This document shows, piece by piece, positions 1,628 through 64,000 of a DNA stretch of 64,000 nt; position 1 is the stretch's first letter, and each line of letters begins with the position of its first letter. This DNA comes from Balanoglossus misakiensis. Lineage: Eukaryota; Animalia; Hemichordata. The position numbers and the translations under genes are program-made. Below the pieces are notes generated by a model. The model searched no databases, was not told where the DNA came from, and worked only from the letters and a program-made list of their open reading frames with translations. The DNA lies in NCBI GenBank assembly GCA_040954595.2, contig CM082579.2, forward strand, positions 7,057,625 through 7,121,624, in the 5' to 3' direction.

Positions 1628-3306
1628 ATGAAGAGCTCTCTTGGAATTTTCATGTTGGCCATAGTAACTGCGGCGAGCTATGCTGAAGAGTTGGAAAGTG
1701 TCGTCGCCGATTTAACCGCGGATGAAATGTTGAATGTATGTATGGATGGCATCTATCACAGAGACACACCAGGACCAGAACCACAGCTTCATGGTCAGGT
1801 GAGTTGCTGGATGTTTTCCAACTCTTCTACACAAGAAAACGCTACCTTCTTATAAAAGAAAAAGAATATTGCTAGAAACATGCTCTAATGTTTGTTAGTA
1901 TCATTTGCATTTCTTCTGTGTCAACCACTATATGTGACGAATACGATTCTTTTGTTTCTAACTTCATTTTCTCAGTGTGCGCAGTGGTCAGATCGAAGTT
2001 GCTGTTTTCCTAACGTCAGTGAAGCTATACACGAAGATGGTGTTTTGTACGATATAGGGTGGTATCATTGTGGCCAAAATGCATTGTCTTCAGAGTGCTA
2101 CAAGTACCTAGTTCAAGATTCTTGCTTCTACGAGTGTACACCCAATGTTGGACCCTGGCTGGTAGAGGTTGGTATTTCAATGGTTTGTTCACAAACGGGA
2201 GACAATGTACAGATTCTGCTGCAATATTGTATACTTATAATTATAGACCTAGCTGGCTTGCATTGGCCAACAGATTATACTCATTATTCCAATGACCTTA
2301 GTTGACCCCTTCTTGATTCAGATGAAATGATCTGAACTACTAGTATTTTCTTAAAATTTCAACACACACGGTGCTGCAGTCTACAAGCATGCAGTGTGTT
2401 CAGTGTTGGCCGTGAGACACATTCTGCATTCACCAGAATCTCAGTCTTAAACATTATGGTTCTGTCTTTTTTACCAGCACACGATTCCGATCAGAAATGA
2501 GCGCTTTGTGAACATTCCATTGTGTGCCAGCGAGTGCAATGCATGGTGGGACGCGTGTAAAGATGACTTCACCTGTTCAAATGACTGGACCACAGGCTGG
2601 GAGTGGTCTTCAGGTAGAAAACTGCATTAACATAACATTCAGTTAAAATTGGATGCGTGTATTCTTTGCCCATTGCTATGGGCCGTATTTGTATGTTGGG
2701 GCAATTAATTTATGCCGTTTTAGTAAAAAAATTCTTCTCTGAAACCGCTTGTAAGATTGCTTTGAAATTCAGATTTTTAGAAGGACAATATATGTGCAAT
2801 GCAACTGGACTGCATGTGCTCATACACGTTCTGAAATTAGCAAAAATAATTTCTTTGACATAATTGTTAATTTTTTAGGCACTGCCAAATGTCCAGAAGA
2901 CAAACCTTGCAAAACTTTCAGAGAATATTTCCACAATGCTAAATCCTTGTGTGAAAATTTGTGGGGAGGCTCGTTCCAAGTTGTGCCCGACAATACCCCG
3001 GACAAGCCGTGTATGAAAATGTTCTGGGAAGAGGATGAAGACAACCCAAATTATGAGGTACGTCTGAGTAGCATCCACATCGGTTGCAACAAACTTGGAA
3101 ATATTTAGAAAAAAAAAACAGAAAAAAATGAAATTATGTTTCAAGTCATGTGTGCTAAATTATGACAATGTCTTTCTTTCGGAGTGTAGGTTGCTGCTTA
3201 CTATGCAAGTAAAATGGCGGCTGATGCGTCGGGGAGTCAACGCAGCCGATCAAATCACAATTACGTGGTAAGTTGTCTGGTACTGCTGACAGCCATCAAC
3301 TGGTAA
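1628..3306 (+). CDS. Folate receptor / riboflavin-binding protein family protein, ~264 aa, signal peptide and probable GPI anchor
   Basis: Exons 1628-1798, 1976-2167, 2478-2613, 2879-3057, 3190-3306 (all GT-AG, phases consistent). Family motifs: LNVCMDGIYH..PGPEPQLHGQC..W...CC, WYHCG, QDSCFYECTPNVGPW, RNERFVNIPLCASECNAWWDACK, DWTTGWEW, LCENLWGGSF, NPNYEVAAYYA, then a hydrophobic C-terminus. Confidence 0.93.
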
Positions 3307-8782: not shown

Positions 8783-11074
8783 AGTATGTTAAATTAGGAA
8801 ACGAGTTTTTTGTAAATTTGAATAACTTTGTTGATTTGAAACCCGGATAAGTGAACACATATGGGCATATGAAACTTATGGGTGACTGTGTATCTTAAAT
8901 CATGGCCCCGATGGTGTGATTTACTCAACTCTCAACATTGATATAAACACTATATATAGCTGAATGTAATACAAGCGTGGCGTTTACTCCATGCATTTTC
9001 TAACCTTGTCCGATTTTGGTCCCGAAACCGAAGTCTTTTTTGAAAGTGCGTATTGCCACTTTTGTTTTACCACAGGATTGTCTGGAGTGTGGTGGCCACA
9101 GCAACAAATACCTATCCATAGATCCCTATGGCAACCCCATATGCACGCAGTGTAGCAAATGTCCACCTGGAACGGGAGTGAGCAAGCCATGTGATGGCGG
9201 CCGTGACACTGTCTGTGAGATTTGTCCAGAAGGAACTTATTCGGGAACATGGAGTAGTTCCAGGGAATGCATGCCATGTAGGACGTGTCCTCCCCATCAG
9301 CGAGAAATCAGAAAGTGTTCGGCGAATAAAAATGCGAAATGTGCGAAAAAATGCGATTTGGGTAAGTAATTATATACAGTGTTACGAAGAGGTCATAGCT
9401 GAGAGACAAATCATGCACGCGTAAATATCTGAAAAGTAAAGTTCAGACGTCCGCATTATACTATGATTAATTCTCTCATCGACTAAGCTTACTTCCAGAA
9501 TTCCAACTACTTCCACCTTTTCATAATCCGCTGACAACATCTTATTTTTCTCACCATCTATTTTTCCAACTCAACTCGTGTACAGGTTACTTCCTTGACG
9601 AACTGACGTACCTCTGTGAACCATGCTCGTGGTGTTTCCCTGAGCGACCAGAGATAGCGCCCCCGCGTGTTGTGCAGTGCATGACCAGACCAGAAATTCC
9701 GATCGACTACCAGTGCATGCCCAGTCGCATTGAATTTCGGCCATATCACGTGACGTTGGCAGCCGCTGACGACAGAAAAGGTAGGCTATAATGCGTCAAC
9801 GTGGGTATTTCTGCAATACCTACGAAAATGATTCAAGTTTATAATGTTACAGACATATTCAGTAGAAGCCAATGTTACAAGTGAATATGACTGACATTTC
9901 ATCTGGCTATTGATAGATCGGAAGTTCAGTGAGTTATATTCTTCCGTTCTCACTTTATACGCGACAACTTTATAATGACCTGTGAATCTACATATTTATA
10001 CCAACAGATGGAAAACTCGATGATGGTAACAAAACACGACAAAAGTACGCCAAGGGAAATGGAAAGAGTAGCGACAACACAACGCCTCGAAAAGACGGTG
10101 TCGCGGGAGAAGACAGAAAAACCGACAGCAAAAATTGCGCCAGAGACGATGTCGATGGAAACTTAATTTTTGTCGACAGTCAAGAAAAGTTCACTTTTCA
10201 AGCCATTGAAGATACCCGAAACCAATCAGGGAACAGCACGAGTTTCAAACAGTTTAATTGGAATGATGGATTAACGGTGGCCTTAATTGCTGGTGGTGTT
10301 GCTGGTACTATTCTGGGGCTAGTTGTGTTTATTGTTATTTTACGTTTGTTGACGAAGAAAAGGGGTTTATTGGTATATCAAAAACTGTATAGTTCTGAAT
10401 CAGCGAGTCACATAAATGACCCGGATGAAGACAGAGACTCCGCTGTTTCTGCAGACAGTTGTCCTGGAAACGAACCTTCGAATGACGTCACACAAGACAT
10501 TGCAACTTTATCCGACAAAGATGAAGGAGTGGGTTTAAGTGAATGCACAGCGAGTGTTGAGACGGAGATACCGTGTGCCGTGAGAGGTCGAGACCAGGGT
10601 GATGGTTTCACCGCGGAGATCGAACACACATCTCGCAACGGCAGTAATGGCGAAGATCAGGCTATGGAAGTAGACGGTAACGCAGGCGGCAGTTTGCAAG
10701 ATTCCTTGACGACGTTAACAACTGACGATACAACGTTTCCCATTGACACATATGAATGCGACCAGACGAGTCATGGACTAGTGACAAATAGAAGAACTGA
10801 GGCTGACGGGGTGGTATTTCAAGAGGACATCGTCAGCGTTCCCCAGAATAGACCACTGGCTACACCAAGAAAGTTCAGCGATTCGTCAGACAGTGGCGTT
10901 GACGCAGATTTTGATGACGGCGGCCAAATCTCACGGGGATATCTCGTGACTAGGCTTGGTGACGTCACATATAAAGACGAACCTGTCCGATGCCAGCGTC
11001 AGTCGAACGAGACGCCACACCCTCTACGACCATTATCTTTGAATCCGGACATTGATTATGGAACTGTCGTGTGA
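8094..11074 (+). CDS. TNF receptor superfamily protein A (TROY/XEDAR/EDAR-like, no death domain), ~536 aa
   Basis: Exons 8094-8156 (signal-like MMFHSITCYVVVHFLLCRMNV, least certain), 9076-9361 (CTQCSKCPPGTGVSKPC...DTVCEICPEGTYS...CMPCRTC...C..NKNAKC), 9586-9780 (GYF...CEPCSWC) and 10008-11074 (stalk, TM VALIAGGVAGTILGLVVFIVIL, long acidic tail). Phases 0/1/1 consistent. Confidence 0.88.
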
Positions 11075-11953: not shown

Positions 11954-14900
11954 ATGGCTACCCCTTTCGGTGTTGTCTTGTCGCGTCTAATGCTTCCTCT
12001 TGTACTCATCTGTGCTCAGATTGTAAGTATGAACTTTGAAGAAATATTGAAGAATCAAGAACTGATCCCAGCTGATAATGTATTGTTGTTAGCTGCAATT
12101 CTTACGTGTCATATATGCCATGCACGTGTGTATGTTGTCTTCACGTCACACCTGTGTGTGAGAGGTACATGTACAGTGGAACTCGGGGTCATTGCAGTTT
12201 TATTTTGAAAATAAATTTCGTGGGTTTTTCACACCACGTACGTGTTATTACCCATGTTGTAGATATTTCATGGTTTATTCTACCGAAGTGCACTAAATAC
12301 AACAAAACTTTTAAAAGAAAAAAAAACTGTCTGACGTTAATTTTGAACTTGGAAGCTTTTACATCAAAGTGTGTCAGTTTGCTATTTGGGTGATTTATTT
12401 AATCATTTCCTGTGCTTTACTGAATATTCTTCACATACAAGTTTGTAAACCGTATGGGTTGATATGACAGTTGGCAGACCTCTCGACACACTACATTCAC
12501 ACTACATTCAGGCAAACAGTTGGCAATGCTGGCAGGTATAATATTTCTGAAGTATGTAACCTCCAAGCGAAATTTTAGCTTTATATCCAAACTTAAAGTA
12601 AGATTAAATCAGCTGAAACGTACACATTTTAAATTACCGAAACCTATTATAAGCAAGATGGACATTAATTTCGTGCTATTTACGACACGTACACATGCAT
12701 CGTACGATCGCGTGTTCTTATGATTGATGGCGCGTCTTGCCCGTTTAGGGACAGGTGTATACCAGGTTTAACAGCAAGGAATTCTTTTAATTTCTTCGGT
12801 CGATTCAAACTGGCAAAATGTTCAACGTTAGCAGCGACTGACAAAATCTTATTAATTTTTAAATGCCTGGTACAAAGAATTGACCCCCACAAATGCAATA
12901 ATCAGACCCTCGTGTTATCTGAGGACACAGATTGTAGACAGATAAGAAATATCGTACCACTGTGTGTGTACTCCGAGTCATGAGTCCAACACAACGTATG
13001 CCATCGGAAAATAATACCTGTTCATAGTGTACCACAGTGGTCGAAATAGTTCAATTTGACTCAGCACTATCTTAAAATCAAAATAAATTTGTTTGGGCAG
13101 GTAAGCTTATCTTTGCCCATATCCTCTTCTACCTGGTTTTGTCACGACCTATAAAATCTCTTTTGTTTTCGATGGCGCTTTTTTCCATTTAGTCCGTCAG
13201 GTGTTAACCAATTATACGAATTAACCTTTGCCAGTTGTTATAAACGCACTGTAAAACCTTCCTGGTTATCAAGTTTAATGAAGATACATACGCTGTACCT
13301 ACGTGCCGAACAACTATATTATTGTGCGACATGCTAGCTATGTCCGTTATTCATAGGCTTTTTGCTGTCTCTCCCGAAGTCTTGCCCGCCACTCACTCAA
13401 CACCAGGCTCTTTTCAAAACTTGACGAGGCTTATATTGACAATAGAACAGTCGACAAGCTATTCACGACCATGTTACCAAATGCTCATGACGAAAAAGAT
13501 ACATCTTTTTCGTCTCATGACATTTACACTATTCTATACAACATCTCAGAACCTTCTTCTATGATCACCCCATCATTGCGACAAGGATTTGTCGCCAATG
13601 GAGATCGAGACACACTCACTACATTTTGCGCAATGTTCGTGCCTCACAGTTAAAAACTGCTTCCACCTGTTACAGCGAGCGGACGTGGACTGTTACGGGC
13701 AGAGAAACAAGTACTTGGCCAGAGATCTCTATGGCAACCTAAAATGCGTACCATGTACGAAGTGTCCACCGGGATTGGGCGTTGATCATCGGTGTGGCGG
13801 TACCAGTGACACGGTGTGTGAAATTTGTCGAGAAGGAAGCTATTCGGGCACATGGAGTAGTTCCAGAAAATGCACGCCGTGCAAGATGTGTTCTCCCGAT
13901 CAACGAGAAATTAGAAAATGTTCGACGGTAAAAAACGCGAAATGTACAAAAGGGTGTGGTGCAGGTAAGTTCTCGGATTCATGCAACCACTTGCCAATGT
14001 CGTCTTGGTTAATTGACTTGAATGCACAAGACTTTCACAATTGATTACGAAGATCCTTAAGGACCTAGTTTGTACCTTCCAATCGTTTCTAATAAAGCAA
14101 AAATAACCCAACAAATCTCGAAACCACGATACTTATCAATCAAACTAATGGTGTAACTGTGTATATATTTTTTTACAAATAAAATACTCGGAGACATTAA
14201 CAATTTGCACTTGCTTAATTCACCTGCGAAATTCGTCGATTGGTTTGTCAACAGGGTATTTCTTCAACAGTGAGACCAATCTCTGTGATCCTTGCTCCAA
14301 ATGTTTTTCTACCAACCAACCCCAGTTAGAAGCAAGACCACGGGAATGCGGCGACATTGGACTTGAACTTCCCCCGACATGCGCAGGGGGCGCAAGCGAG
14401 GATCAACCGCAGTCACATGACAATATTCACGAAGCTGGAATAGCAAACGAAGGCATGCATTCCTTAAAATTGCTCTTAAAATAGGCGAGGTGGCAATATT
14501 TTGACCTTGCCTTACTCTTTGCTGAGTTATGGTATTCTAGTATCGAACAAACGCATCATATAATATAATACCCGATATTTACTTTCTGACTTTAGGTAAT
14601 GAAGACAGGACTGCTACCGACAGCAAAATTAAAATGCATACAGCGTTAAACCAAAAGGAGATCGAATTGACATCAACACTTTCACTTTCTGTTGAACCAT
14701 CGCCATCACCCCGACACGTGAATGGAAACGATATGCCGCCCGGGGGAACCGATACACTTCTAGTCAGTTTACCAACGAGGACGGAGAACAGCTCTGTTAC
14801 GGCAAATGTAAATGCGGCGCCAAAGAGATACGCCCAGTTTCCGCAGATTGCCTTAATCATTGGGGCAACTGCACTGGTGCTCGGTGCCATTACAGCAATT

Positions 14901-15251
14901 CCCTGCGCGATAAACTTAATTCACAGACGTCGCAGGCGCAAGCGCCACCAACCGGACGTGTCCTACCACAGAACCCCCGTTGCCAACGGATACAGAGAGC
15001 AAGTTGTCCTCGTCAACAGTGGCCGGAACGCCGAGTTCACGTACGTACCTCAGCGCTACTCTCCGACCTGTTCGCAGGTGTCGACTGGTAACCATGGTAA
15101 CGAACTCTCCGAGCCACACGCGAACCGCAGTCACATTGACTTTAGCGAAGACAAGGCGAGTCATGTTTGGCGCGAAGGGGTCGTTGGCGGCGACCACGAT
15201 AATCTGAAATACCAAGCGCTCTACGGAAGAGAAGATAACGCTTTTAGGTGA
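11954..15251 (+). CDS. TNF receptor superfamily protein B, tandem paralog of A (no death domain), ~403 aa
   Basis: Exons 11954-12022 (signal peptide MATPFGVVLSRLMLPLVLICAQI), 13676-13964 (CVPCTKCPPGLGV..RC...DTVCEICREGSYSGTWSSSRKCTPCKMC), 14255-14452 (GYF...CDPCSKC; needs a GC donor) and 14596-15251 (TM IALIIGATALVLGAITAIPCAI, then RRRRRKR). Same exon/phase layout as gene A. Confidence 0.86.
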
Positions 15252-48360: not shown

Positions 48361-48648
<288 letters not shown>

Positions 48649-49388: not shown

Positions 49389-52300
49389 ATGGCGGATCAA
49401 GATTCAGACGCTGATGGATCAGTTTTGAAGGAAGGAGATTCCTTTTCCTTGTATGTAACTGCGATAGATCTGTCGTTGGGGGCATGTCGCTTCTGGGCGC
49501 AATGTCACGTTCCGTCGGAAAGCCTGTCCCAGCTCGAATCGTTGATGAACAACTGCCAGAAGTTTATAGAGGCTGCCCCAGAAATCGACGACGCATCGCG
49601 GTTAGACGTAGGGGATCTTTGCTTCGCGAAGTTTTCGGAAGATGGCGTTTGGTACCGGGCGAGGGTTTGGTGTATGAAGTCGCCACGTGAATGCACCGTG
49701 TTTTTTGTCGATTACGGAAATGTCGACACGGTGCCCGTTGGAGATGTGAGGCTCATAGAAAACGTGAAACTATCAGGACCGACGATGACCAGTTCAGCCC
49801 AGGACATCTTGTTTGGCATTCCTGCCCAAGCGACCGAGTGCATTCTGGCCCACGTGATGCCAGTGGACCAGTGGAAATGGAGCGAAGAAGCGGAGACATA
49901 TCTGAAAGAAACACTCGCTTTCGAAGAATTCACGGGTGTCGTTGACAAATCAACCAAAGAGAAGGCTTTGATAGAAGTGAAACTGTCTTCAGGAGAATTG
50001 TTGGCGGATAACTTAATAAAAGCCGGGTTCGCAAGATCATGTGACAATAGTTACACCCTGTTTAACGCATACACAAACGTGTCACTGCCAATAGATTATG
50101 AAGATGATGTGTGCATTGCCTGTTGCGTAAACCCCGAACAGTTCTGGGTGCATTTGAAGTCTGCGCAAGTTGATGAAGTCACTGACAAAGTTACTGAATT
50201 TTACAGTAGTATACCAGAGTCTGAATTACAGCTTTTGTATGTAACGAAGGGTTGTGCATGTGTGGCCAAATACGCTGAAGATGATGGTTACTACAGGGCG
50301 AAAGTTACTGAAGTGCTGGGGGACAAGTACAGGGTCCAGTTTATTGACTTTGGAAATTCGGATGTGGTGCCACTGGAAAACGTTAGAGCCGCCCACTTCA
50401 GTCTATTCCAGCACCCCGTGTTTGCCGTTGAGTGCGCTTTGGAAGGTGTTCGCAGCATCGACAAAGCGGCGGCGCAGCGCTTCATTCAGCTGACGGTTGA
50501 CCAGTCAGTGCGGGCCGTAGTCGCGGGCCAAAATCAGAACAAGCTGTTCATATCGATGTACAACTTCGCGAAGGGCGTTCCGATAAGCATCGCAGGCGTT
50601 CTGCTGAAAGAAGGTCTGATCGAATTGTGCGAGGCGGAGAAGCCGCTGTGCGGGCGGGTGCATTTGGAGGAACAGAGAGTGAAATTGTGGTCCTTCCACT
50701 CGGTGTACGTCACGCACGTCGAGAGTCCGTCCAGCTTCGTGTGTCAGCTGGCGTCTAACACGTCTCTCATCGACGGCATCATGAACGAACTGGCGAAAGC
50801 GTGCGCTGTCGAGTCGAACGAAGTCAAAGTACAGGCGTCTGACCGAGTACCTGGTTTCTTTTGCAGTGCCCAGTTCACCGAGGACGACCTGTGGTACCGA
50901 GCGCAGATTATCAAGCCCGTGGATGACGACAACGTCGAGGTGAAGTACATCGACTTTGGGAACTCTGAAACCGTACCGGTAACACGCCTGCAGTACTTGC
51001 CTGCGCACTGCTGCCAACCAATACAGGGAGTGCACTGCAGTCTGGCCTACGCCAAACCGGCCCAGAAAGAGTGGTCCAAGCAACAGACTGAATATCTCCA
51101 AGAACTGGCCATTGACAAATCGTTGATTGCTTACATACTCAGCATTGACAAGTACGGGCAGTACGTTGTTGAATTAGCAAGTGCGGCCGATTGCCAAAGC
51201 AGTATTAACACAATGGTACGCAATAGAGAACAGGAACAACAGCTGAGCATTACTGCCACAAGCGAGAGGCAAAGTGCCACCAACACAGTCACACCGCCGG
51301 AAGACAAGCTGTCGAAACCACCTAAGCAGATGGATGTGGGCAGGTCAGGTGACTTGAAAGCAAATATCACCCATACAGCTAAAGAGAGCCCTCTAGTGTT
51401 GATCCCGCCAAACGTGGAGCTGGGGAGCAAACTGGCAGTACTTGTCTCATCGGTCGAGTCTGTGTCTAACTTCCACTGTCAACTTGGAAGTCAGAAAGTT
51501 GACCAGCTCCAAGGTAGAATTCAGAAGTTCTACGCAAGCCACGCGGGTAAATTGAGTCAGCCGTCTCTGAAGCCTAACGTGTCCTGCTGTGCCCAGTTCA
51601 CCGAGGATGACGAGTGGTACAGAGCAGAAATTCTGTCTATTGATGAAGTAGAAGGGAAGGCCAAAGTGATGTACGTGGATTACGGAAACACCGAGAACCT
51701 ATCGATCTTCAGACTGAAACAGCTGCTGCGGGAGTTCTATGATGAAGCGGTTCACTGCATCGTCTGCTGCCTGCCGGAAAACATGTGCCGCAGTCTCGCC
51801 GGCTGCCCTCAGCCGAGTGTGGCGGAGAAGTTCGAGGAGTTGGTCGCCGGGAAGGAGATCCGCGCCGTGGTGGTCGGAGAGACCGTGGACGGCAAGAAGG
51901 TGGTGGAGCTGATCGACCAGAACACGGGGGCCGACTACTGCGAGAAGTTGATGGAGATGTTCGGCGTCGGGAAGCAGCAGTCCCCGATACAGGCGGAGAT
52001 GGCGAGGAAGGCGCGTCAAGACCGCGGCCGGCAGCCCCACGCTTCCAAGACGACGAAGCCGCCGGAGATTATTAAAAAAGATCCGGTGTACGCAGAAGCG
52101 AAACTGACGGAGGGTTCCACTGAAGAGGTGTTGGTAACGCACTACGTTGACCCCGAGAACTTCTGGTGCCAGCTGCTTGGCTCGGAAGAAAAACTGAACT
52201 CCCTGATGGCGGACATCAACGCCCACTGTGAAGCGGACAAGCTGGCCGGCAGAAAACCCGCGTTTGGACTGGGAGCGCCGTGCCTGGCACAGTACTCGGA

Positions 52301-55300
52301 AAACGTGGAGTGGTACAGGGCTGTGGTCACCGGCGTCAAACACAGCGGGGATTTGGAGGTCATGTACGTGGATTACGGAAACGCCGAGATGCTGTCTCCG
52401 TCGAAAGTGAAAGAGATGCCGGAGAAATTCACAGAGCTGCCCGTGCAGGCCGTGCACTGTTCACTCACCAACGTCATTCCTAGCAGCGACACATGGACCA
52501 AGGAGCAAGTCGCCGCATTGAGAAATATGATAGAAAACCAGGCGTTCATGGCGTGTATTCACCGACTGGACCCAGCGCAAGAGGTGTACAGCGTAGAGCT
52601 TGTGGACAGCGCGAGCAACAGCATCAACGACAAGTTTGGAATGATGACAAAGACTCTGGCCAGACCAACAGCGGTCGGCGGAACATCGAGCAGTAAGATG
52701 CAGAAAGAGAGGGTGAACTCGGTGGACGTGCAGCCGCAGCTGAACAGGTTCAATGGTAATGCCAGATCTGCAGAACAGCACGCAGGTCGATTTCCAAACG
52801 CAATGCTGAATGTTAACCAGAACAATCGGTCCTCGGACATCCAACCTCTAATTGAAACAAACCAGCAGCAGAGCTACAAGCGCACCCAACTCTTGATGGA
52901 CGAATACTACGACGTGTTTGTGTCGTTCGTGACCAGCCCAGGTCAGTTTGTCTGCCAGCTGGCCAGAGAAAGCAACCAGCTGGACGAGCTCATGAACGAC
53001 ATCGCGGCTGTTTATTCGAAGGACGTTCCGGCCGATCTGAACCCGAAGTCCTTCGTGACCGGCCTGGTGTGTTGTGCGCAGTTCACGGAGGACGACGGCT
53101 GGTACCGCGCCCAAATCACCGGGTTGTCCGGACAGCAGGTGACGGTCAAGTACATCGACTATGGAAACTCGGAGCTCCTGCCCAGACACAGGGTGAAAAC
53201 ACTGAAGCCGGAATTCATGAAGCTTCCAGCTCAGGCCGTAGAGTGCAGCCTGTTCGGTGTGAGGCCGGTCGGCGGAGAGTGGACGGCGGACAGCGCTGCG
53301 TGTTTCCAGGAACTGACCGGAGACAAGAAACTGGTGGGGAATGTCGCAGCTATCGACAAGAACGGCACGGTGACCATGGAACTGCAGGACACGAACGGCC
53401 CAGACGATGCATTCATCAAAGATGAACTGGTCGCCTTGAACCACGCCATTATTGCTGATGATGCCCAAGAGAAACTGGAAGATGTCCCAAGACAACGCCA
53501 AACCAGAGGTGGGTACTGTTTATCTAATGAACATAAAATATTTGCCACCATAAAGTGCATCACCAGGAAAGACTTTTATCACACTGGGATTTATTTTCCC
53601 TGAAAACAAAAATTTTGAATATTACTTAATTTTTATTTTCACTATTTCTTGTCATCTGATGTGCAAAGAATATGAAATAATAATTTTCACTAGGATTTTA
53701 TTTTAGCAGAAAAATTAGTCCAACGAAAAAAGTGAAAATAAAATCCTGGTGAAAATTAAGTATTCTACAGTATGATGTGTTATGTACACAGTTGCCTGGC
53801 TGGTATGAATATATACAAAGTCAAAATTAATACAGGTGAACAAATGTATCACTATTTTGTTTCAAAATCCTGCCAAGAAAAGTTCAAACTTAATTCTAAT
53901 AATCAAACTATCAACTCTCCCCTCCTACTCTTAATAAATTTGGGGATTAACAAACACATAAAATATTATTCAGAATTACTTACTTTTACAAAAATGGACA
54001 TGTTTATTTATTCTCTTCATTTTGTGTATGTACAGATAGTGTCAGTTCAATGGTAGAACCGGCCATGACAAGCACTCCGTTCGATGCCAGGAAGGGAACT
54101 CCTTCAGTCGCCACGGAAACAGACGCAGATGTGACATTAGAGAAAACGCTTCACAAAGTGGAAGAAGCAACACCGCTGGACACCTCTCTGATATCAGTGC
54201 GCGCCGACCAGAAAAGGGGCACCTTTGTAGAGAACTCGTATGAGGTCAACGAAGACTTGAAGGTGACCGTTTCACACGTGAACAGTCCCATTGAGTTGTG
54301 GTGTCAGCCAGCCGAGCTCTCGGACGAGTTCTACGGCCTGTTAGACGAAATGAAATCCCACTACGACAAGCTGAAAGACTCGGAAGGAACGCTGGACCAC
54401 TACCTGCTGGGAAGTCAGTGCGTCGCCAAGTTCTCCCTGGACGAGAGCTGGTATCGGGCCGCCGTGATCGGGCGGACGCCCAGCCACCTGAAGGTGCTCT
54501 TTGTGGACTACGGCAACGCAGAAACGGTGCCGGTGGAAAAAGTGAAAGAAATTGAAGGGAAGTTCATGAAAATACCAGTGCAGGCTTTCCAGTGTGGCTT
54601 GAGCGGGTTTACAGAAGGTGGAAATCAGGAGCAGTTACAGAAGCTGGTCGGTGACGGACGAATTCTGAGTTGTAGGATCGTGAACTGCCACGCCACTGGT
54701 ATCTACGAGGTGAATTTGATGGATGGCGGCAAAGATGTTGGTGAACAGCTGAGAGTGCTGATGAAAGCCACTGTGAACGAAGACAACAAGACCAAAACTA
54801 CAGGTAAGTGACAATACATTTGAATGGCCGTCAGTTTTTGAGACTCTCCACTTCAAAACTGCCCAGATTTTTTCTGCTAACAACAAGAGATATGATGGTG
54901 TAATTCAACAACATTGCAAGACAGTGAAAATGTACATTGTTTGTGTTTTACTGGCATAAACCTTTCTAAGTTGCGTGTTTTCTTATTCACAGACACCACT
55001 CCACCACCAGGAGAGCAGCAGCGTTCAGCCAGCATTCCAGATGAGATAGAAGTTGGTCAATTTGAAGACCTTCTAGTCAGCCACGTGGATAGCGCATCTA
55101 GACTGTGGTGCAATCTGGCCAAGAACTGCAACCAAGTGTACCAGTTGCTGGCCGAGATGGGTAGTTTCTACGAGGCTGGTGGCTCCAAGTTGTCTGAGCC
55201 TGTAACTGTCGGACGCGCGTGCGCTGCCAAGTATGTCGACGGAAGTTGGTATCGTGCTGTTGTCCGTGGAATCGAGGATGACTCTGTGTTTGTGTTCTTC

Positions 55301-58300
55301 ATTGATTTCGGAAATGAAGATAAAGTCGACGTGGGTAGCTTGAGAGTGTTGGACGAGAAGTTTCAGCATCTACCGCCACAGGCAGTGGAGTGTGTCTTGC
55401 AGGGCGTCTCGGACAGCAAGGGGAGTGCGTACACGGCAGTCCAGGATCTGACGGCGGATAAACAACTGGTCGGCAGAGTTCTTGAGAAGACGACTCCGAA
55501 GTTGATCATCGAGCTGTTTGACACCACCGGAGAAACAGATGTGAACATCAACGAGGAAATCCAGAAAATCGCAGCAGAAGAATTTGAGAGAGCTGAAGCA
55601 GCCACCCAGACCTCGCCCGTGACCGTTCCTGAGCAAGTTGTTGCCGAGAGTTCAACGCACTATCTTGAGCAGCGGCTGGAAAGTGGCAGTACAAGAGAAG
55701 GGTACGTCTCTCACGTCGACAGCATTCGCAAATTCTTCGTGCAGTTTGCCGGTGACGAGGAGAAGTTGACCGCCATGGAGACGGAGATCCAGCGACTCCA
55801 AGACGGGATGGCCGCAGTGGAGAACGCAATTGTAGGCCAGCCGTGCTGTGCCAGGGATTCTGTTCACGAGACCTGGTGCCGCGCTCGCATTGAGAGCGTG
55901 AGTGACAAGCTGGCCACAGTGCGGTTTGTGGATTACGGCAACTCGGAGACCGTTCCCGTTTCTGATCTGAAAGTGCCGAATGCGCAGATGCTCAGAGAAC
56001 CGCCGTTTGCAGTGGAGTGTTCGCTGGAAAATATCGGTAATGCCGAAACTGCGGCTGGCATTTCTGATTATTTCATGGAGTGCACGATGGACAAGAATCT
56101 GCAGATCACTTTCGTGTCCACGGAGAGATGTTGCAAAGTGAAAGTGACATGCGACGACCAAGACGCCGGTAGCATGATCAGTGAGAAATTTGAGACCGCA
56201 GCCGAACCAGAGGAGACCAGCACTTCCTCCGCAGGTCCAGTGAAAGACTTGGTCGAATGTGTGGAAACACTCCAAATCAGAGAAACTGCCAGTGTGACGG
56301 ACAAGTACAAGAAGCATACTTTCCAAGTGGGAGAGACGTACACTGTGTACCTGTCCAGCGTAGAATCGCCGTGGAAGTTCTGGTGTCAGGTAGCAGAGTC
56401 CACCTCGCGGCTGACAGAGCTCGACGAGAAGATCCAAGATTACTGCGCCGCCGGTCGCAGCGGGGATGCAGCCGTCCAGGCCGTTACCGTAGGGATGCCC
56501 TGTCTGGCGTTCTTCGCAGAAGACAAGCGATGGTACCGGGGTCGAGTTACCGACATTGGCGTGTCGTCGTACACGGTGCTCTTCGTGGATTACGGCAACT
56601 CGGCAGAGTGCGAGATAGGAAGTCTGCGCACCATTCCACAGGAGCTCATTCAGTTGGAAGAGCAGTCCATCCAATGCTGCCTGTCGGGGATTAAAAGCCA
56701 GTGTGAAGAGAGGTGGTCCCACGAGAGCGAAGTCAGGTTTGAAGAAATGACACTGGAGATCGAGCTCAAGGCCAAGGTCGTGAGCTTTGACGGATCGAGG
56801 TGCTGCGTCGAGCTGTTCAGTGGGGAGAGTTGCATCGCCGATGTGCTGGTGAAGGAGGGGTTGGTTGAACAGAACGAAAAGTGTGATGGTGTTGAGAGTG
56901 AGAAAGAAGATGATGGAAAAGAGTTGCACGGAGACCCGGCACCCGTAGAAATGAGTCGCAAAGAAGATAAAGAGGCAAGGGAAAATGTGATAGAACCAGC
57001 GGATCACCAGGGAGAGGCAACAGATGGATTGGATGAAATCTCCAGCACGGTTGAAGAAGATAAGGAAGAGACGAGATCAGGTGAAGAAGAAAAGTCCGGA
57101 GCAAAGACAGACGCAGGAAGTGCTCGGCCACCAGAATTGGAACCAGTTCCAGAGGAGTGCGCGCAGATCAACCTGTACACCATTGCCGAGATGGAGGTGA
57201 GCGCCAAGGAGGAGGCCTTCGTCAGTGTGGTGTCCTCAGTGTCCAAGGTCTACTGTCACGTCAAGAGGCTGCAGCCAAAGTTGGATTCCCTGGCAGCGTC
57301 GCTACAGCAGGACTACTCGCAGATGCAGGAGGACGACCTGCAGCTGGAGTGCACGGAAATCGGCACCGCCTGCGCCGTAGAGAACCACAAGGACGGACGT
57401 TGGTACCGCGCCATCATCTGCGGCCAGATCGACGCCTCCCGAGTCGAGGTCTTCTATGTGGACTACGGCCACGTGCAAGTGGCCCCCGTCACCAGTACTA
57501 AGCAGCTGAAGAAGGAATACTTTGAAGTACCGGCACTGGCCGTGAAGTGCTACATCAGGGAGGTCATTGAAGCCGGCCTCTTGTCAACCAGTAAGGCGAT
57601 GTCTTCCATCAGGGAGCTGGTCACCGACAAGACCATGACCATACACGTCATTGAGCGCGTCTTCACTGGAGTCTACCTGGTGGAGCTGTACGATGGAGAC
57701 AGTTCTGTCGGACAGACCATGCTGGATATTCTGAAGCCCAAGACGAAGGCAATGCCGCTGACAGACTTGGAAAGTCATATGGTCGAGTACGTGCAGTCGC
57801 CTGCTGCCAAAAGTCAGGCCGGGAGGTCGCCGTTTCATGAAACGTTTTGCGGCGATGATGGGGAGCTGGGTGATGCAAATGATGATGAAGAGCCTGCAGA
57901 TGACGCGAAAACAGATGGAAGAGGCGAAGGTGATGCGGCTCCGAAGTTTCCTGATCTTGATGAGACTTGCGAGACGAGCGATCCACCGAGAGAAGAGATC
58001 GAATTACAACAAGTCAGTCTGGCAGTTGGGTTCAGCACGCAGGTGTACTATTTAAGCCAGACCTCTCCGGATCTGTTCATCTGTCAGTTCGCGGACACAG
58101 CCGAGAGACTGGACAGCCTGCACGCGGAGATATCCGAGCACTGCTCCGGCGACGCCGAGTGCATCAGCTCGCCAGTGGTCGGCCAGCCCTGCTTGGTGCA
58201 GTATTCCAAGGACTGCCAGTGGTACAGGGCAGTCGTCACGGCCACCCACGGTCCCCAGAACGACGTGTACTTTGTGGACTACGGGAACTGCGAAAGTGTG

Positions 58301-61300
58301 TCGGCCAGCTACATTCGGGCCGTTCCGCCGTCCCTGGCCGAACTTCCTATGCAAGCTATCAAGTGTCGCCTTGCCAACGTTGGAGCTGTTGGTCAAGAAT
58401 GGAGTGAGGAAGCCATTGCTTTGTTTGAAGGTACGTATAGCAAGTATAAGCCATACAAATATACCATTGCTGGGCATGTGACTGACAGCTGCCCTCTGTT
58501 ATCAACAGTAAGACACAAGTCATGTCATTTCACAGGGATGTGGTCATTTTCACTTTGTCATGTTTACGTGAGCAGAACACCACAAAGAACACCTAAATTG
58601 ACTTTCAAATGCCAACAAATTTGTGCACTGTATAGGACAGCTATGAGCTTTGTAGTTTCTTACTTATTACTGTAGTTTTGTAAAAATTTGTTTTTCCCGT
58701 ATGTCTATCTGTCCAGATTGTTGCCATGACAAACTGTTGACGGCCGAGATCGTGGATGTGGATGAGGATGGAGTGGTTGATGTGAAACTGCTGAATGAAG
58801 ATGGCGCAGATGTCTGTCTTACCCTTGTTGCTGCCAACCATGCTACATGGAAATCGAAAAATAAAGGTGGGTGATGTGTGTACAATATCCAGGATTGAAG
58901 AAATGAAAATCTTCATTAAATCGACCTTTTAAATTTCCACACTATTCTTAGAATAATTCTGGGAAAAAATCTCAGTCTCCTAATAAAGTAAATGGTCAGA
59001 TTTTGTTTCGTTCAGTGTCAGTTATGATGAAATCCTTGTCACTGCAGATGTTGCTGAGGAGAGTCACAAAAATGAGACGACGTCTTCGTCGGTGGATGAA
59101 GATGGATGCAAAGAGATCACCGATGGTGATGATGAAGAAAGTCCGTCATTGGAAAGTCACGGAGCAGACGGCGACATGGAGACTTTGGAATTCAGCGCAA
59201 CAGAGCATCAAGATAGCGTGTCTGACACTGCAATCAGCGACGTTTGGAAAAGCAGCGACGATCACTTGTTGGACACCACTGAGGAAACCCAAACCCAAGT
59301 CGCTAGTGTGCGTGTCTGGCACGACTCGGACGGAGGGGGTGTGATTGGAAAGTGCGTGGAAGTCGTTGACATCTCCAGGGAGGACGACGATGTTGAAGCG
59401 GGCGATGCCGGGAAAGAGAGCGGTTCCTCTGTCAGGATCCAGGAGATGGCGGTGCCCGAGATTACGATCACTCAGTACCACGACATCGACAGCAGCATCT
59501 GCAGTTTGAGTGTATCGCAGAGTGACGACTTGCCGCGGGTGGACTTCGGCCAGGGAGACGATCATTGCGAAGAGACGGAGAAGGGTGAAGTCGAAGTCGA
59601 CAGCGATCAGAAGGCAGAGATCGACAAGGAGCCTGACAATTCAGAAGGCTGCTGCACAGCGGCCTCTATGGACAGTGATGCAAGCGTGCCAGGTGAAGTT
59701 TCACAGCCAAGTTCCGAAGATGGAGACGAAGGTAGAGTGTATTCAGTCACAGACGAAATCCTGATGGACCTGATTTCAAAACTACACCTCCGGGGCGAAC
59801 CCGATGCTGGACCTGGAGAGACTTCTTCAGCAGATGAACCTGAAGGCAGCGACGGCGGCGATGATCACGCAAATGCGTCTCGCGGAGAAAAGCAAGAAAA
59901 GAGAGAGCAGTATGCTGCAACAGAACTGTCGGGGTGGACAGAAGGGACAACCAGTGATGTCAGTGGACTGTCGTCGGTCGAGCTGGCCCGCGACGCCATG
60001 ACCTCCGGCGAGCAGACCGAGATCGAAGTCAGCGCGCGGGAGGAGTTGGAGGCGACGTGGGACGAAGGAGAGATACCGGAGGAGGTGGATTTCGCCCAGC
60101 AACTCGACATGCCCAGAGCTGTTGGTCCGGTCAAAGACGCCGAGTACCTGGTGTTGGAGGAGGAGGATGAGGTGTACGCCGAGAAGAACGTCGTGCTGTT
60201 CAGCGGCGACGTCCAAAACGAAGCAGGTAATGTGAGCGAAGAAACTAGCGAGTGTCTGCACACGCCAATGAGTTACTGCAGTGATGAAATGGAGGTCTGG
60301 TTCGATGTCTCGGAGGGTAGCACGGGTGAGCAGGTCGCGCTCGGCACCGCGGACGAGCGGGCGGAGTCCACGGAGCTCAGCGATGCGCTGGGCGTCGACA
60401 CAAGTGATGGGTCGGCCGGTTCCGGTGTTAGCGTGGAGAGTGACGGAAGGGTGGAGATCGGTGCGGCCGGCAGCACGGATGAGTTTGAGCGTCCTCAAAT
60501 CGAGGCGCACTTGTCAGCGGAGAGCGATAGTACGGACGAGAACATGAGCCGGTCAACAGCACCACCTGGTTGTCTGACCAGTGACTCCGCGGGTGGAGAT
60601 GTTGACCAGCCTCGAGACGAAGCACAAGACGGCGGTAGTCGAGCAACGCAGGATGCAGATGAAGGGAGAGATTTAACCGACGAGGAAATGTCACTCATCA
60701 GGGATTTCGTGAAAGAAATCACTTTGGAGGCAGCGTATCACTTGATAGGCGTCACGGAATCAGAAACGAGTATCGACGCAGCCATAGTAGTACCCAGTGA
60801 TAGTGATAGGTCAGGCAGCAGATACAACAACGCCTGTGGTGACCAACATGACATAACCAGTGAGATATACTACGAGGACGATAGTAGTGAGGAAGGTAAC
60901 CCTGACCTGTGTGTCATAGGCACACAAATTCAACCTATCAGTGCAGATGACGTGGCGGAGACCTCTAGTGGTCACGCAGGTGGAGCCGATAACTCCCATG
61001 ATACTTTGCACGCGGACGAGAGTGAGGGAAGTAGCATGACAGGCAGCCAATCAGAGAAGTTAGAATTGAGAGAAATAGGTCAGGTAGAGGTCGCCGAGTC
61101 CAGTCAGGGCACTAGGGCAGAATTCGATGCTTCAACATTAGGTGAGATACGCGAGACTATCCATATTCCAGGTAAGATCCTGTGATATGCATGCAAATGT
61201 GATTTTTATTTCTAACATTTTTTGGTTTTACTTTTCGTATTTTGGTTCCTGTTCTTTTTGTTTAAAATTCCCATATCTAAAGCTAAATGTTTTGTTTTAA

Positions 61301-62010
61301 TAATTGCCTCTGTTCTTACAGTTTGCATTCAGGAAGAGGAAGAAGGTCTTTCAGAGACAGTGAGAAAATATCAACTGCCAAGGTAATGTGCCATCCATGA
61401 TCTTGGATTTCTTAACATGCTCAGCTTATGGGCCCATCCCATCAAAACATTTTTAATAAGTTGTTGCCAATTTATTGAAGTCAGTTATGTTTGTGTCTAT
61501 TGTAGGAAGAGCACAGTGTCATCAGATGATTGGGTTGATATCAACACTGACGATATGGATGAAACATTCACTGGTAAGTGGACATGTGTCAAGACATTGG
61601 AAATGAACAACTGTGAGGTTTAGCAACTCAAGAATGAACACCAGATGGCGCTGTTCTGCCAATTACATTGTACGCTTATATTGCTAGAATATGGAAAGCG
61701 AACTCTCCCACTGCAAAGAAACCCCCATTTCCCAATTGTAGAGGTCCAAGTTTACCCCCAGATAAACAACAGAATTGGACAAAACTGTGCTAGTGAGAGG
61801 GTTGGAAATAAAATGTACATTTGGTCACGGTGCTACCGGTACTGTCATATCTTTTCAGGAAATTTGGATTTAGTAGCAGGCCAAATCACCACACGCCACG
61901 TATCTTCAACAAATCTCACGCATGTGCATGACTTAGTAATTTATCAACATTTTTGTCTTGCAGCAGATGATGTGGGAACCAATCATGACAGTGATGAACA
62001 AACCAAATAG
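49389..62010 (+). CDS. Giant multi-Tudor protein (TDRD6/TDRD15/Drosophila Tudor-like): 12 extended Tudor domains plus acidic tail, ~3590 aa
   Basis: Exons 49389-53508, 54036-54803, 54993-58430, 58717-58866, 59048-61171, 61322-61382, 61506-61573 and 61964-62010 total 10776 nt in frame. Twelve repeats of P..F.CQ...C.A.F.ED..WYRA.I....V.YVDYGN.E.......P.QA..C.L (6 in exon 1, 1 in exon 2, 5 in exons 3-4). Strong start context AAAATGGCG. The exon 5 acceptor is the least certain boundary. Confidence 0.9.
53560..53772. mobile_element. Degenerate MITE-like repeat in Tudor intron 1
   Basis: Inverted pair TTTTCACTAGGATTTTATTTT (~53684) and AAAATAAAATCCTGGTGAAAA (~53735), repeated TTTATTTTC units, and a Tc1/mariner-like end TACAGTA at 53772. 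The left terminus is not recognisable. Confidence 0.4.
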
Positions 62011-64000
62011 TGAAGAAGATGTCAAGGGAAAAAATACAAAATGTTAGTAGTTGTAACATCAAACCGTGTTACAGTAGAGATTTTTCATGATGTTTAGTGC
62101 AAAAGCATTCCTGTGTTGCGAATTTTCTGAAGGTTAAATTAGACGATTGAAACATTTAGTTAAACATTGCAAAAAAAAAAGAGAAAAATTGCCAAAAACA
62201 AAAACAAATTTTAATTCCAAAATCTCAGTTACAGAAATGCATACTATAATGTTATTCTAAGATTGTTCAAGTTTTCTTATTAATGCTTTTTCCACAAGTT
62301 CCTGAGATGCATACCAGCCTAGTAGTGAAAACTTCCATTCAGTTGAATTTTGTTTTTGCCAAAGAAGGGAAAGCTTCTACTTTTGACCGTAGAAACAAAG
62401 TCTTACCTTTTGATATCTTTGTGGTATTCATCATGACAGCAGTACTTGGTCACAGAAAAAAAATTAGCGATAGTTGTTTTGATTATTTTTATAGTTAGGT
62501 AAGTCGTGTAATCCTGCACAGCTTTTCAGGAATTTCACCAACACCACATTGACAAGTTCACACTGGTTGTTGTTAACATACTGTTGTAGATCACATACTC
62601 TTTCTAAGTTTCCAAGCTTGCCTTGTATGGTGCTGTTGCTCAAATGCTTCGGTCATTGGTCCATTCATAACCAGTCAATGAATCCCCCCCCCTCCGGATA
62701 AGTGACATCCTTGAGAACTAGAACTCCATCCTCATGTTGCTTCACTAAGGCTGCTGTCTGAGTAGTTTCAATATTATTCCACCACCAGAACTAGCGTTTA
62801 ATTAAACCACAGCCTGGAGCAGTATGCCCAGACCGACCTGATTCTCTTTTGGGAGGGGGGGGGGGGTTGTCCGAAGTCGGATTCATTGTTAGATGTTATT
62901 TCCAAACGCAAGGTTGACGTTCAGACATTAAAAGTTCATGTTGCATATTTTGAAAAGAGATCTGTGTCATCAGATTACTGTTCTGGTCATGACCCATCCT
63001 CTGCAGGGGTGTGTAGTTATGCTTGGAAGTGGAAGCAAAGTGATGATGTTGGGGAGGATTGGAGGCAAATGTTTCTTCTTGGGGGACAGTAATACTGAGA
63101 ATAAGATGTTGCTAAGCAACCAGTTTTCAATAGACCTTCCATTTCCCATGCGTATAGATCCTTGGCAAAAGGTGTTGAAGAAACTACAAGCTTCAAGCTA
63201 CATTTACTATTTTTGTACTAATTCCAGGAAGTATAAAGTAAGCATCCAATGCTTGCTTGTCAACCGTAACTCTGTCACATCAACTCCAAGAAAGGGCATG
63301 ATACCGGTGATATCAGTGGATTTAATCTCATCACATATAACTCCCAGCATAACTGTATGCAAATCATCGTTGTTGCTTGTGTCAAAGTACACCGTGACAC
63401 AATCCCTCTGTAATCATGGTAATAGAGAGACCTGTGACCATGAGTACACATACCTGGGCACCCTGTACCTGTTCATATCGACCCTTTATTGATTTACCCC
63501 AATGAATGCAATCAGACAAGAAGCACGTCCACAACTAGAAAAGGACGTTCACCCTTAGGATAAACGCCCCGCCCAACTTATTATGCTTTGATATTTGCAT
63601 ATGAATACCAAAGGCTGGTACTAGCTGTCCCCGATTATGACTCACTCATTATTTATTTATTTATGTAGATAGCTAAAAACCAAGGTCTTTACTGCCCATT
63701 AGCGCTGATCCGTCACTGATAATCACAAAATAGTTCAGCAGCCAGGCTTTTTACAAACTTTCACGTACCATTGGATAGTGTTGTTATTGTCCATCTTCTA
63801 AACAATTATCATCATCATCATCAAACAAAATCTTCAATCAGAGAGAAACCACTTCACGTAACACTACTAGTGAGACTTTGCAAAATAACTTAAAAGGTGG
63901 CAAGTTCACCACTATTTATTTGAATGCAAAGGTGTTGTGATGCTAAGACATAGAGAATGAGTATTCAACCACACCAAGAACCAAGGATTCAAATTGTATA

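Follow-up and report, generated by a model that had tools for sequence, protein, structure and literature searches.

Why does a multi-Tudor protein carry a disordered tail of several hundred residues behind its last Tudor domain? The question is raised by a plus-strand gene in a 64,000-nt window of the acorn worm Balanoglossus misakiensis (assembly GCA_040954595.2, contig CM082579.2, positions 7,057,625 to 7,121,624 of the forward strand; coordinates below count from the first base of this window, and all features of the gene lie on its plus strand). The molecular basis of germ-granule attachment to organelles and of the later clearance of granules is poorly understood, and the known Tudor anchors of the piRNA pathway, Papi/TDRKH and Spoon/AKAP1, go with mitochondrial machinery according to bioRxiv 445825. 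An earlier note on this DNA had proposed a Tudor/AKAP-like hybrid whose tail holds docking motifs for calcineurin (PxIxIT), for VAP on the endoplasmic reticulum (ER; the FFAT motif, a pair of phenylalanines within an acidic stretch), for protein kinase A (PKA; helices of the A-kinase anchoring protein, AKAP, type) and for Atg8/LC3 (LC3-interacting region, LIR). Our reading, to which we give roughly one chance in two, is that the tail is a docking arm whose main role would be to hold the Tudor array, with the methyl-arginine cargo that it binds, at the ER by way of a W/V-variant FFAT motif predicted to contact VAP. The recurrence of FFAT motifs across invertebrate Tudor/TDRD6 homologues is a stronger result than the four-motif hybrid, and a new one.

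What kind of protein is it? GT-AG introns, all in phase, join four long frames (between 49389 and 61185) and four short exons, eight exons in all, into a single open reading frame of 3590 residues with its stop at 62011. Exon 1 (49389..53508) begins with ATG, encodes Tudor domains 1-6 and is identical in its N-terminus to protein P0002 of Ptychodera flava at 75 of 100 positions; exon 2 (54036..54803) encodes Tudor 7, exon 3 (54993..58430) Tudor 8-11 with the larger part of Tudor 12, and exon 4 (58717..58866) the end of the extended Tudor 12. The bulk of the acidic, predicted-disordered tail is encoded by exon 5 (59048..61171), which aligns with the tail of P0002, and is followed by exon 6 (61322..61382), exon 7 (61506..61573), which encodes (R)KSTVSSDDWVDI, and exon 8 (61967..62011, stop codon included), for which an alternative in-frame acceptor exists at 61964. 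Pfam finds 12 Tudor domains (PF00567), split 6+1+5, no domain match in exon 5, and no MYND, LOTUS, KH or helicase family in the whole protein. The aromatic cage (four aromatics and an Asn), at the positions that we take to form it, is intact in 10 of the 12 domains, domains 9 and 11 being without it. Homologue matches include proteins named Tudor, TDRD6 and TDRD15. In a FastTree of 250 domains from 24 proteins, mostly poorly resolved, domain 1 groups with invertebrate first domains (0.91) and domain 7 with domain 4 of TDRD6/TDRD15 (0.96), and domain 11 also falls with TDRD6/15. The protein is of the Tudor/TDRD6 type, with 12 Tudor domains and a disordered acidic tail of 765 residues.

Does the tail really belong to the Tudor protein? 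From 59048 onward it is rich in E (13.7%), S (12.5%) and D (12.4%), D/E/S together making up 39%, and when exon 5 alone was modelled with AlphaFold from the single sequence, 672 of its 707 residues had a predicted local distance difference test score (pLDDT) below 50, with a mean of 37, in agreement with the acidic low-complexity sequence that had been described behind Tudor 12. The best homologue, P. flava XP_070552424.1 (P0002, 3528 residues), is collinear with the B. misakiensis protein in all 12 Tudor domains, 56% identical across exon 3 and, in an independent RefSeq annotation, has the same tail fused to the Tudor array. Identity to P0002 crosses the junctions of exons 3/4 (14/21), 4/5 (10/21), 6/7 (16/21) and 7/8 (12/21), so that orthology supports the splicing of the tail exons onto the Tudor exons. 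It would be very improbable that the exons from 5 on form a transcript of their own, or a seldom-used extension of a main protein that ends after Tudor 12: the junctions are all GT-AG and in phase, the P. flava protein is fused, and in most invertebrate homologues the last Tudor domain is followed by an acidic tail. On the side of that explanation, the exon 5/6 junction aligns poorly with P0002 (4/21), crinoid isoforms vary in the tail, and read-through into intron 4 (58867-58874) meets a stop after two codons, so that intron retention would yield a clean tail-less protein of 12 Tudor domains. The assignment of the tail exons to the Tudor gene, made before from the letters of the window, is supported by the orthologue.

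Is such a tail more than an acidic spacer? The five peptides that the earlier note had singled out lie where it placed them: PEITIT at 59455-59472, VTDEILMDLISKL at 59746-59784, SDEMEVWFDVSE at 60280-60315, EEMSLIRDFVKEITLEAAYHLI at 60682-60747 and RKSTVSSDDWVDI ending at 61542, the R codon of the last being split across exons 6 and 7. All five are in register between the B. misakiensis and P. flava tails. Pooled, they are identical to P0002 at 41 of 66 positions, as against 260 of 699 in the remaining tail (p=0.021, with the motifs placed at random 20,000 times); sites that are hydrophobic stay so in 27 of 28 cases within the motifs and in 82 of 132 elsewhere, in line with the proposal that the islands are conserved above their spacers. 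Identity per motif is 100% for the C-terminal LIR, 85% for the first helix (over a 13-residue core), 67% for PEITIT, 50% for the FFAT site and 32% for the second helix; the LIR and the first helix are individually prominent. When the tail was shuffled 20,000 times, chance matches to a strict P.I.IT arose in 0.26% and to a loose PxIxIT in 7%, to an acid-acid-aromatic-x-x-[LIV] LIR in 25% and to W-x-x-[LIV] in 65%. By pattern only PxIxIT is clearly above chance, and the other motifs rest on conservation.

One explanation of these data is that the tail mainly serves as an acidic spacer tuning condensate solubility, its motifs being due to chance and to the residual identity of two related acorn worms. 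Tail identity (39%) is barely above that of the inter-Tudor linkers (35%; Tudor domains 67%), LIR-like and loose PxIxIT patterns are frequent in shuffles, arthropod and vertebrate homologues have long acidic tails without these motifs, and many known motif classes were available for picking by the earlier note. When the motifs are ranked singly among windows, only the LIR stands out (top 0.7%), the FFAT site being at 32% and the second helix at 64%, and tail conservation is known from two species only. Indeed, a tail profile run against 1.84 billion representatives matched P0002 alone, neither Saccoglossus nor another hemichordate besides P. flava was among the 240 of 339 homologue matches listed, and tail residues 225-430 gave a best score of 0.76, a non-hit, in the ESM Atlas; a word-index search with the tail had zero matches but missed even P0002, so that this method is insensitive here. 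We nevertheless consider the spacer explanation unlikely, given that sharp islands of 80-100% identity stand on a background of 30-40%, that the strict PxIxIT is kept in place, and that the excess of FFAT motifs (over full and 25-residue block shuffles) and of helices (over full shuffles) described below appears in independent phyla. The tail is a real feature and is under selection.

The five islands named before are real but not the only ones. The island SDVWKSSDDHLLDTT (59236..59280), with 80% identity to P0002, was outside that list, and so was the best-conserved block of the tail (59932..60033, residues 3121-3154 of the model), which is 88% identical over 34 residues. This block is rich in Ser/Thr and acids, with Ser/Thr at every third residue among acids, and may represent a relay-phosphorylation cluster. 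A profile of it matched none of the other 203 of 205 tails. Ser/Thr-rich stretches that look similar occur in bivalve and amphioxus tails, where homology to the block is undetectable.

Which island could serve as the tether? The candidate is VWFDVSE (60295..60315), a W/V variant of the FFAT core in an acidic and conserved context, which is non-helical in the AlphaFold model and lies outside a short, low-confidence helix directly upstream of it. By the scores in Table S2 of PMC3261905 (columns taken from the PDF, partly ambiguous; conventional cut-off 2-2.5), VWFDVSE and its P. flava counterpart VWYDVTD both reach only 4.5, so the FFAT call fails as conventionally scored. Other evidence does point to ER docking. 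We scored the non-Tudor regions of the B. misakiensis model and of 118 of 243 homologues, penalising position 2 according to Table EV4 in PMC7705450. A score of 2.5 or better was found in 13 of 17 molluscs (1.5-1.6 expected from full or 25-residue block shuffles), 4 of 6 echinoderms (0.3-0.4 expected, likewise), the one sponge, Halisarca, and 5 of 21 further records (0.4 expected), and in none of the 15 TDRD1/MYND and 10 TDRD15 paralogues used as controls; three starfish, for example, have EFFDAVD, while mussels and scallops have EFYDAE[DE]. The counts are non-independent (three Mytilus, three scallops, three starfish), and because related species share their motifs the independent cases are perhaps seven to nine. 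The census omitted further isoforms, some additional invertebrates, the majority of the vertebrate and of the TDRD1 matches, and four extra amphioxus records, none of these four scoring 2.5 or better; the long crinoid isoform was taken because the short one is without the motif. In this crinoid, Antedon, isoforms X1 and X2 (P0124 and P0029) split at residue 2707 and the FFAT at 2758 is present only in X1, so that splicing may toggle ER docking.

The family also suggests how the W/V form might be read. Halisarca EFYDTQE shares its alignment column, upstream near a common anchor, with EWFDVDD of P0033 and EWYDVDE of P0063, two proteins 48-51% identical to the Halisarca protein. Among the homologues, W[FY]D-small/aliphatic-x-[DE] is present in four cases (P0033, P0063, P0002 and B. 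misakiensis), all with V and all outside Tudor domains. The W/V form at a canonical FFAT column is thus a natural substitute at the FFAT position in another lineage. We also modelled a 34-residue B. misakiensis peptide together with a VAP MSP domain of animal type that came from a metagenome and served as a stand-in (E=1e-59 to VAPA structures). The complex scored 0.64, as against 0.02 for the best of three controls, none of which was an acidic decoy peptide; contacts agree between runs to at least 94% and the partner pLDDT is at least 52. In a microbial calibration the mark for this score was reached by 51 out of 78 solved complexes and by 2 out of 108 mismatched pairs; among eukaryotes it was reached by 39 out of 65 solved pairs that lack a similar older structure and by 2 out of 126 unrelated pairs. 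Peptides and disordered chains lie outside this calibration. In the model W417 touches residues equivalent to VAPA K52/T54/M96 and V420 those equivalent to V51/T53/V61/N64, and W and V occupy the position-2 and position-5 FFAT pockets described in PMC7610837. VAP-FFAT complexes have already been solved, so the pass may reflect memory; with peptides outside the calibration as well, the model shows likeness to an FFAT-VAP complex, not binding. On balance, we would put the chance that VWFDVSE binds VAP slightly above even.

Several further observations count against ER docking by this tail. The score of 4.5 is worse than the median best of shuffled tails (4.0), and motifs of 2.5 or better were found in neither hemichordate (0/2), nor in amphioxus (0/3), arthropod Tudor (0/13) or the named cnidarians (0/3; Stylophora 3.0), and in only 1 of 28 vertebrate TDRD6 proteins, the best human TDRD6 score being 3. 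The location of the motif varies by group, some having it in the tail and others in a late linker, and in the fly the FFAT-VAP link of Caspar is dispensable for germ-cell number. Two observations touch groups without conventional motifs. Amphioxus tails (P0004, P0008), which have no conventional FFAT, share a conserved SSFYTP[VM]GE that resembles a phospho-FFAT, and mammalian TDRD6 tails (P0152, P0209, P0224, P0228, P0237, P0238) share EF[LV]ELES, with an FFAT score of 3.5-4, which is perhaps a remnant.

Could the same islands bind other partners? W-x-x-V doubles as a LIR core and so allows a dual or alternative reading of VWFDVSE: WFDV might be a second ATG8 LIR, the helices might serve self-association, nuclear export or another helix binder, and the tail would in that case act in turnover or assembly instead of as an ER tether or AKAP. 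This is a minority possibility that deserves to be taken seriously. It accords with the suitability of W-x-x-V as a LIR core, with the conservation of both W motifs in P. flava, with the failing FFAT score and the absence of a perfect AKAP match in B. misakiensis, and with the fact that the best-conserved block lies outside all four motif classes. It has to contend, however, with the W/V form at the canonical FFAT column in the Halisarca group, with the canonical FFATs that are common in the family and with a model that sets WFDV in the FFAT register on VAP.

What would a docking arm anchored to the ER carry besides its FFAT site? Two amphipathic segments recall the AKAP motif, a helix of 14-18 residues with paired hydrophobic positions according to PMC13466552. 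The first candidate, VYSVTDEILMDLISKLHLRGEPD (59737..59805), and the second, EEMSLIRDFVKEITLEAAYHLI, both have AKAP-type spacing, which the second keeps in P. flava. In the AlphaFold model of exon 5 the one long helix, H544-565, corresponds exactly to the second segment, whereas the better conserved first segment was not predicted helical. We scanned with a 12-position consensus. Both B. misakiensis segments fit it with one conservative mismatch and P0002 has perfect matches; a perfect match is absent in B. misakiensis, and the pattern fits many amphipathic helices, two points that weaken the case. Hemichordate and echinoderm tails together have 16 AKAP-type helices where full shuffles predict 3.7, in all 8 tails (hemichordates 4, expected 1.8; echinoderms 12, expected 1.9, in 6/6), an excess that suggests selection for amphipathic helices in ambulacrarian tails. 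Elsewhere the numbers observed (expected) are 8 (9.5) in molluscs, 5 (5.4) in arthropods, 4 (7.8) in sharks and fish, 0 (0.7) in amphioxus and 9 (3.8) in further records. Searches of PDB sequences with both helices gave chance matches or none. That at least one of the helices binds the docking/dimerization (D/D) domain of a PKA R-type subunit is a prospect we would place just short of even. The idea that helix 1 is itself part of a D/D domain was ruled out, the second helix being absent downstream in the sequence.

The two remaining motifs have sound cores in P. flava and little beyond acorn worms. The PxIxIT candidate VPEITITQY (59452..59478) has the P. flava counterpart IPQIQITQY, and the core is kept in disorder at the same place in both species, with a non-acidic residue at -1. 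A hydrophobic -1 residue raises calcineurin affinity and an aromatic at position 8 is favoured in silico, as stated in PMC6728138; against docking, the same paper gives basic or hydroxyl residues as preferred at position 2, which is acidic here. PxIxI[TS] matches were found in only four other proteins of 78 scanned, and the sea-urchin homologue has one PxIxIS match. We consider that VPEITITQY probably, if not by much, docks calcineurin. The C-terminal LIR candidate (core WVDI, 61531-61542) is identical at 13 of 13 positions in P0002, SSDDWVDI included, and has an acidic-W-x-x-I core in disorder; the crinoid TEEWEVI resembles SSDDWVDI. Binding of DDWVDI to ATG8/LC3 is, to our judgement, an even bet. 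The C-termini of teleost TDRD6 (P0076, P0079, P0092, P0094, P0120) share a conserved SDDD[IV]IFV, acidic then hydrophobic, which we take to resemble a SUMO- or FIP200-interacting motif. Directly upstream of the acorn-worm LIR candidate stands RK-S-T, a kinase-type site of the RK-x-T form resembling the RRxS/T site that PMC13466552 gives for PKA. Apart from the sea-urchin PxIxIS and the crinoid LIR-like peptide, the PxIxIT and the terminal LIR are confined to acorn worms, which makes the four-motif set lineage-specific.

How might the docking arm work? In keeping with what is known of the family, the Tudor array most likely recognises PIWI or germ-plasm proteins that bear symmetric dimethyl-arginine and assembles granules. 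The tail would probably let such a granule reach VAP on the ER over a long distance and, in the acorn-worm lineage, add sites for PKA, calcineurin and ATG8. Anchored PKA and calcineurin might then set the phosphorylation of the Ser/Thr blocks and thereby decide whether the granule stays attached to the ER or is removed by autophagy, though we think this part improbable. Control of the granule by Ca2+/cAMP and its self-autophagy may be imagined along the same lines. ER docking looks ancient and family-wide, with a motif that would move between the tail and late linkers, whereas the helices would be a hemichordate-echinoderm addition and the PxIxIT and terminal LIR acorn-worm ones. Put together, the ancestral animal Tudor/TDRD6 might have been a direct VAP client tying granules to the ER, its canonical FFAT kept in sponges, molluscs and echinoderms and lost in arthropods, amphioxus and vertebrates, a scaffold onto which acorn worms built an AKAP11-like arm for PKA, calcineurin and ATG8, with W-[FY]-D-V-x-[DE], arisen in two distant lineages, as a dual VAP/ATG8 switch between ER tethering and autophagic clearance; this whole scheme is doubtful. 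That Tudor genes are restricted to the germline is an assumption here, those of a sponge not being germ-specific according to PMC5381599. If the reading of the tail as an ER-docking arm is true, an FFAT of seven residues would provide the main multi-Tudor scaffold with a direct and mutable ER tether. It would have gone unnoticed because flies and vertebrates appear to be without it, and the W/V variant would widen FFAT prediction because current scores reject this form.

Other features of the window stand apart from these questions. A (CAT)95 microsatellite at 48363-48648 precedes the start codon of the Tudor gene by about 740 bases. At 1889-3108 on the plus strand lie exons of a gene from the folate-receptor family (PF03024), next to an SLC52 riboflavin transporter (PF06237; 4269-5723, minus strand) encoded largely in one exon, and two tandem TNFR-cysteine-rich receptor-like genes (9004-11074 and 13565-15251, plus strand) have similar first exons and different downstream frames.

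How does the acorn-worm protein compare with known systems? An FFAT, LIR or AKAP helix on Tudor/TDRD6 was not found in the literature, in which calcineurin together with Tudor was not searched for and subscription journals were mostly outside the scope; nor were TDRD15, TDRD1 and AKAP11 found in the searched text (12 of 14 files, possibly incomplete) of the PMC7705450 supplements. The combination as such is known from AKAP11, and a Tudor-domain AKAP from AKAP1. Like Drosophila Tudor, TDRD6 and TDRD15, the protein has an extended-Tudor array from the N-terminus and no MYND or LOTUS domain; unlike them it has 12 domains and a motif-bearing tail of 765 residues, and the scored vertebrate TDRD6/15 and arthropod members have FFAT motifs of 2.5 or better in 1 of 38 and 0 of 13 and no helix excess. 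CALCOCO1 and fission-yeast Epr1 are soluble VAP-plus-ATG8 receptors with FFAT-type and LIR-type motifs in one protein. Here such motifs sit on a putative methyl-arginine reader. AKAP1 combines one Tudor domain with KH and a mitochondrial anchor. The acorn-worm protein differs in its 12 Tudor domains, in the absence of a visible membrane anchor and in its predicted ER link. TDRD6, the closest vertebrate homologue of Tudor, binds partners with symmetric dimethyl-arginine, as does zebrafish Tdrd6a (PMC6084408). Two sources place AKAP1/Drosophila Spoon among germline Tudor genes as a Tudor-domain AKAP (PMC5381599) and together with the piRNA nuclease Zuc (bioRxiv 445825), so that a hybrid of Tudor and AKAP has a precedent. 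A parallel in motif content is AKAP11/AKAP220, in which PKA anchoring occurs alongside an FFAT able to target the ER in yeast (PMC3261905) and a LIR that brings PKA to autophagosomes (bioRxiv 2024.08.06.606738). AKAP11 has no Tudor array and no sequence homology to the tail was detected, but the two share the combination of PKA anchoring, FFAT and LIR, tested in AKAP11 and predicted from sequence in the acorn worms.

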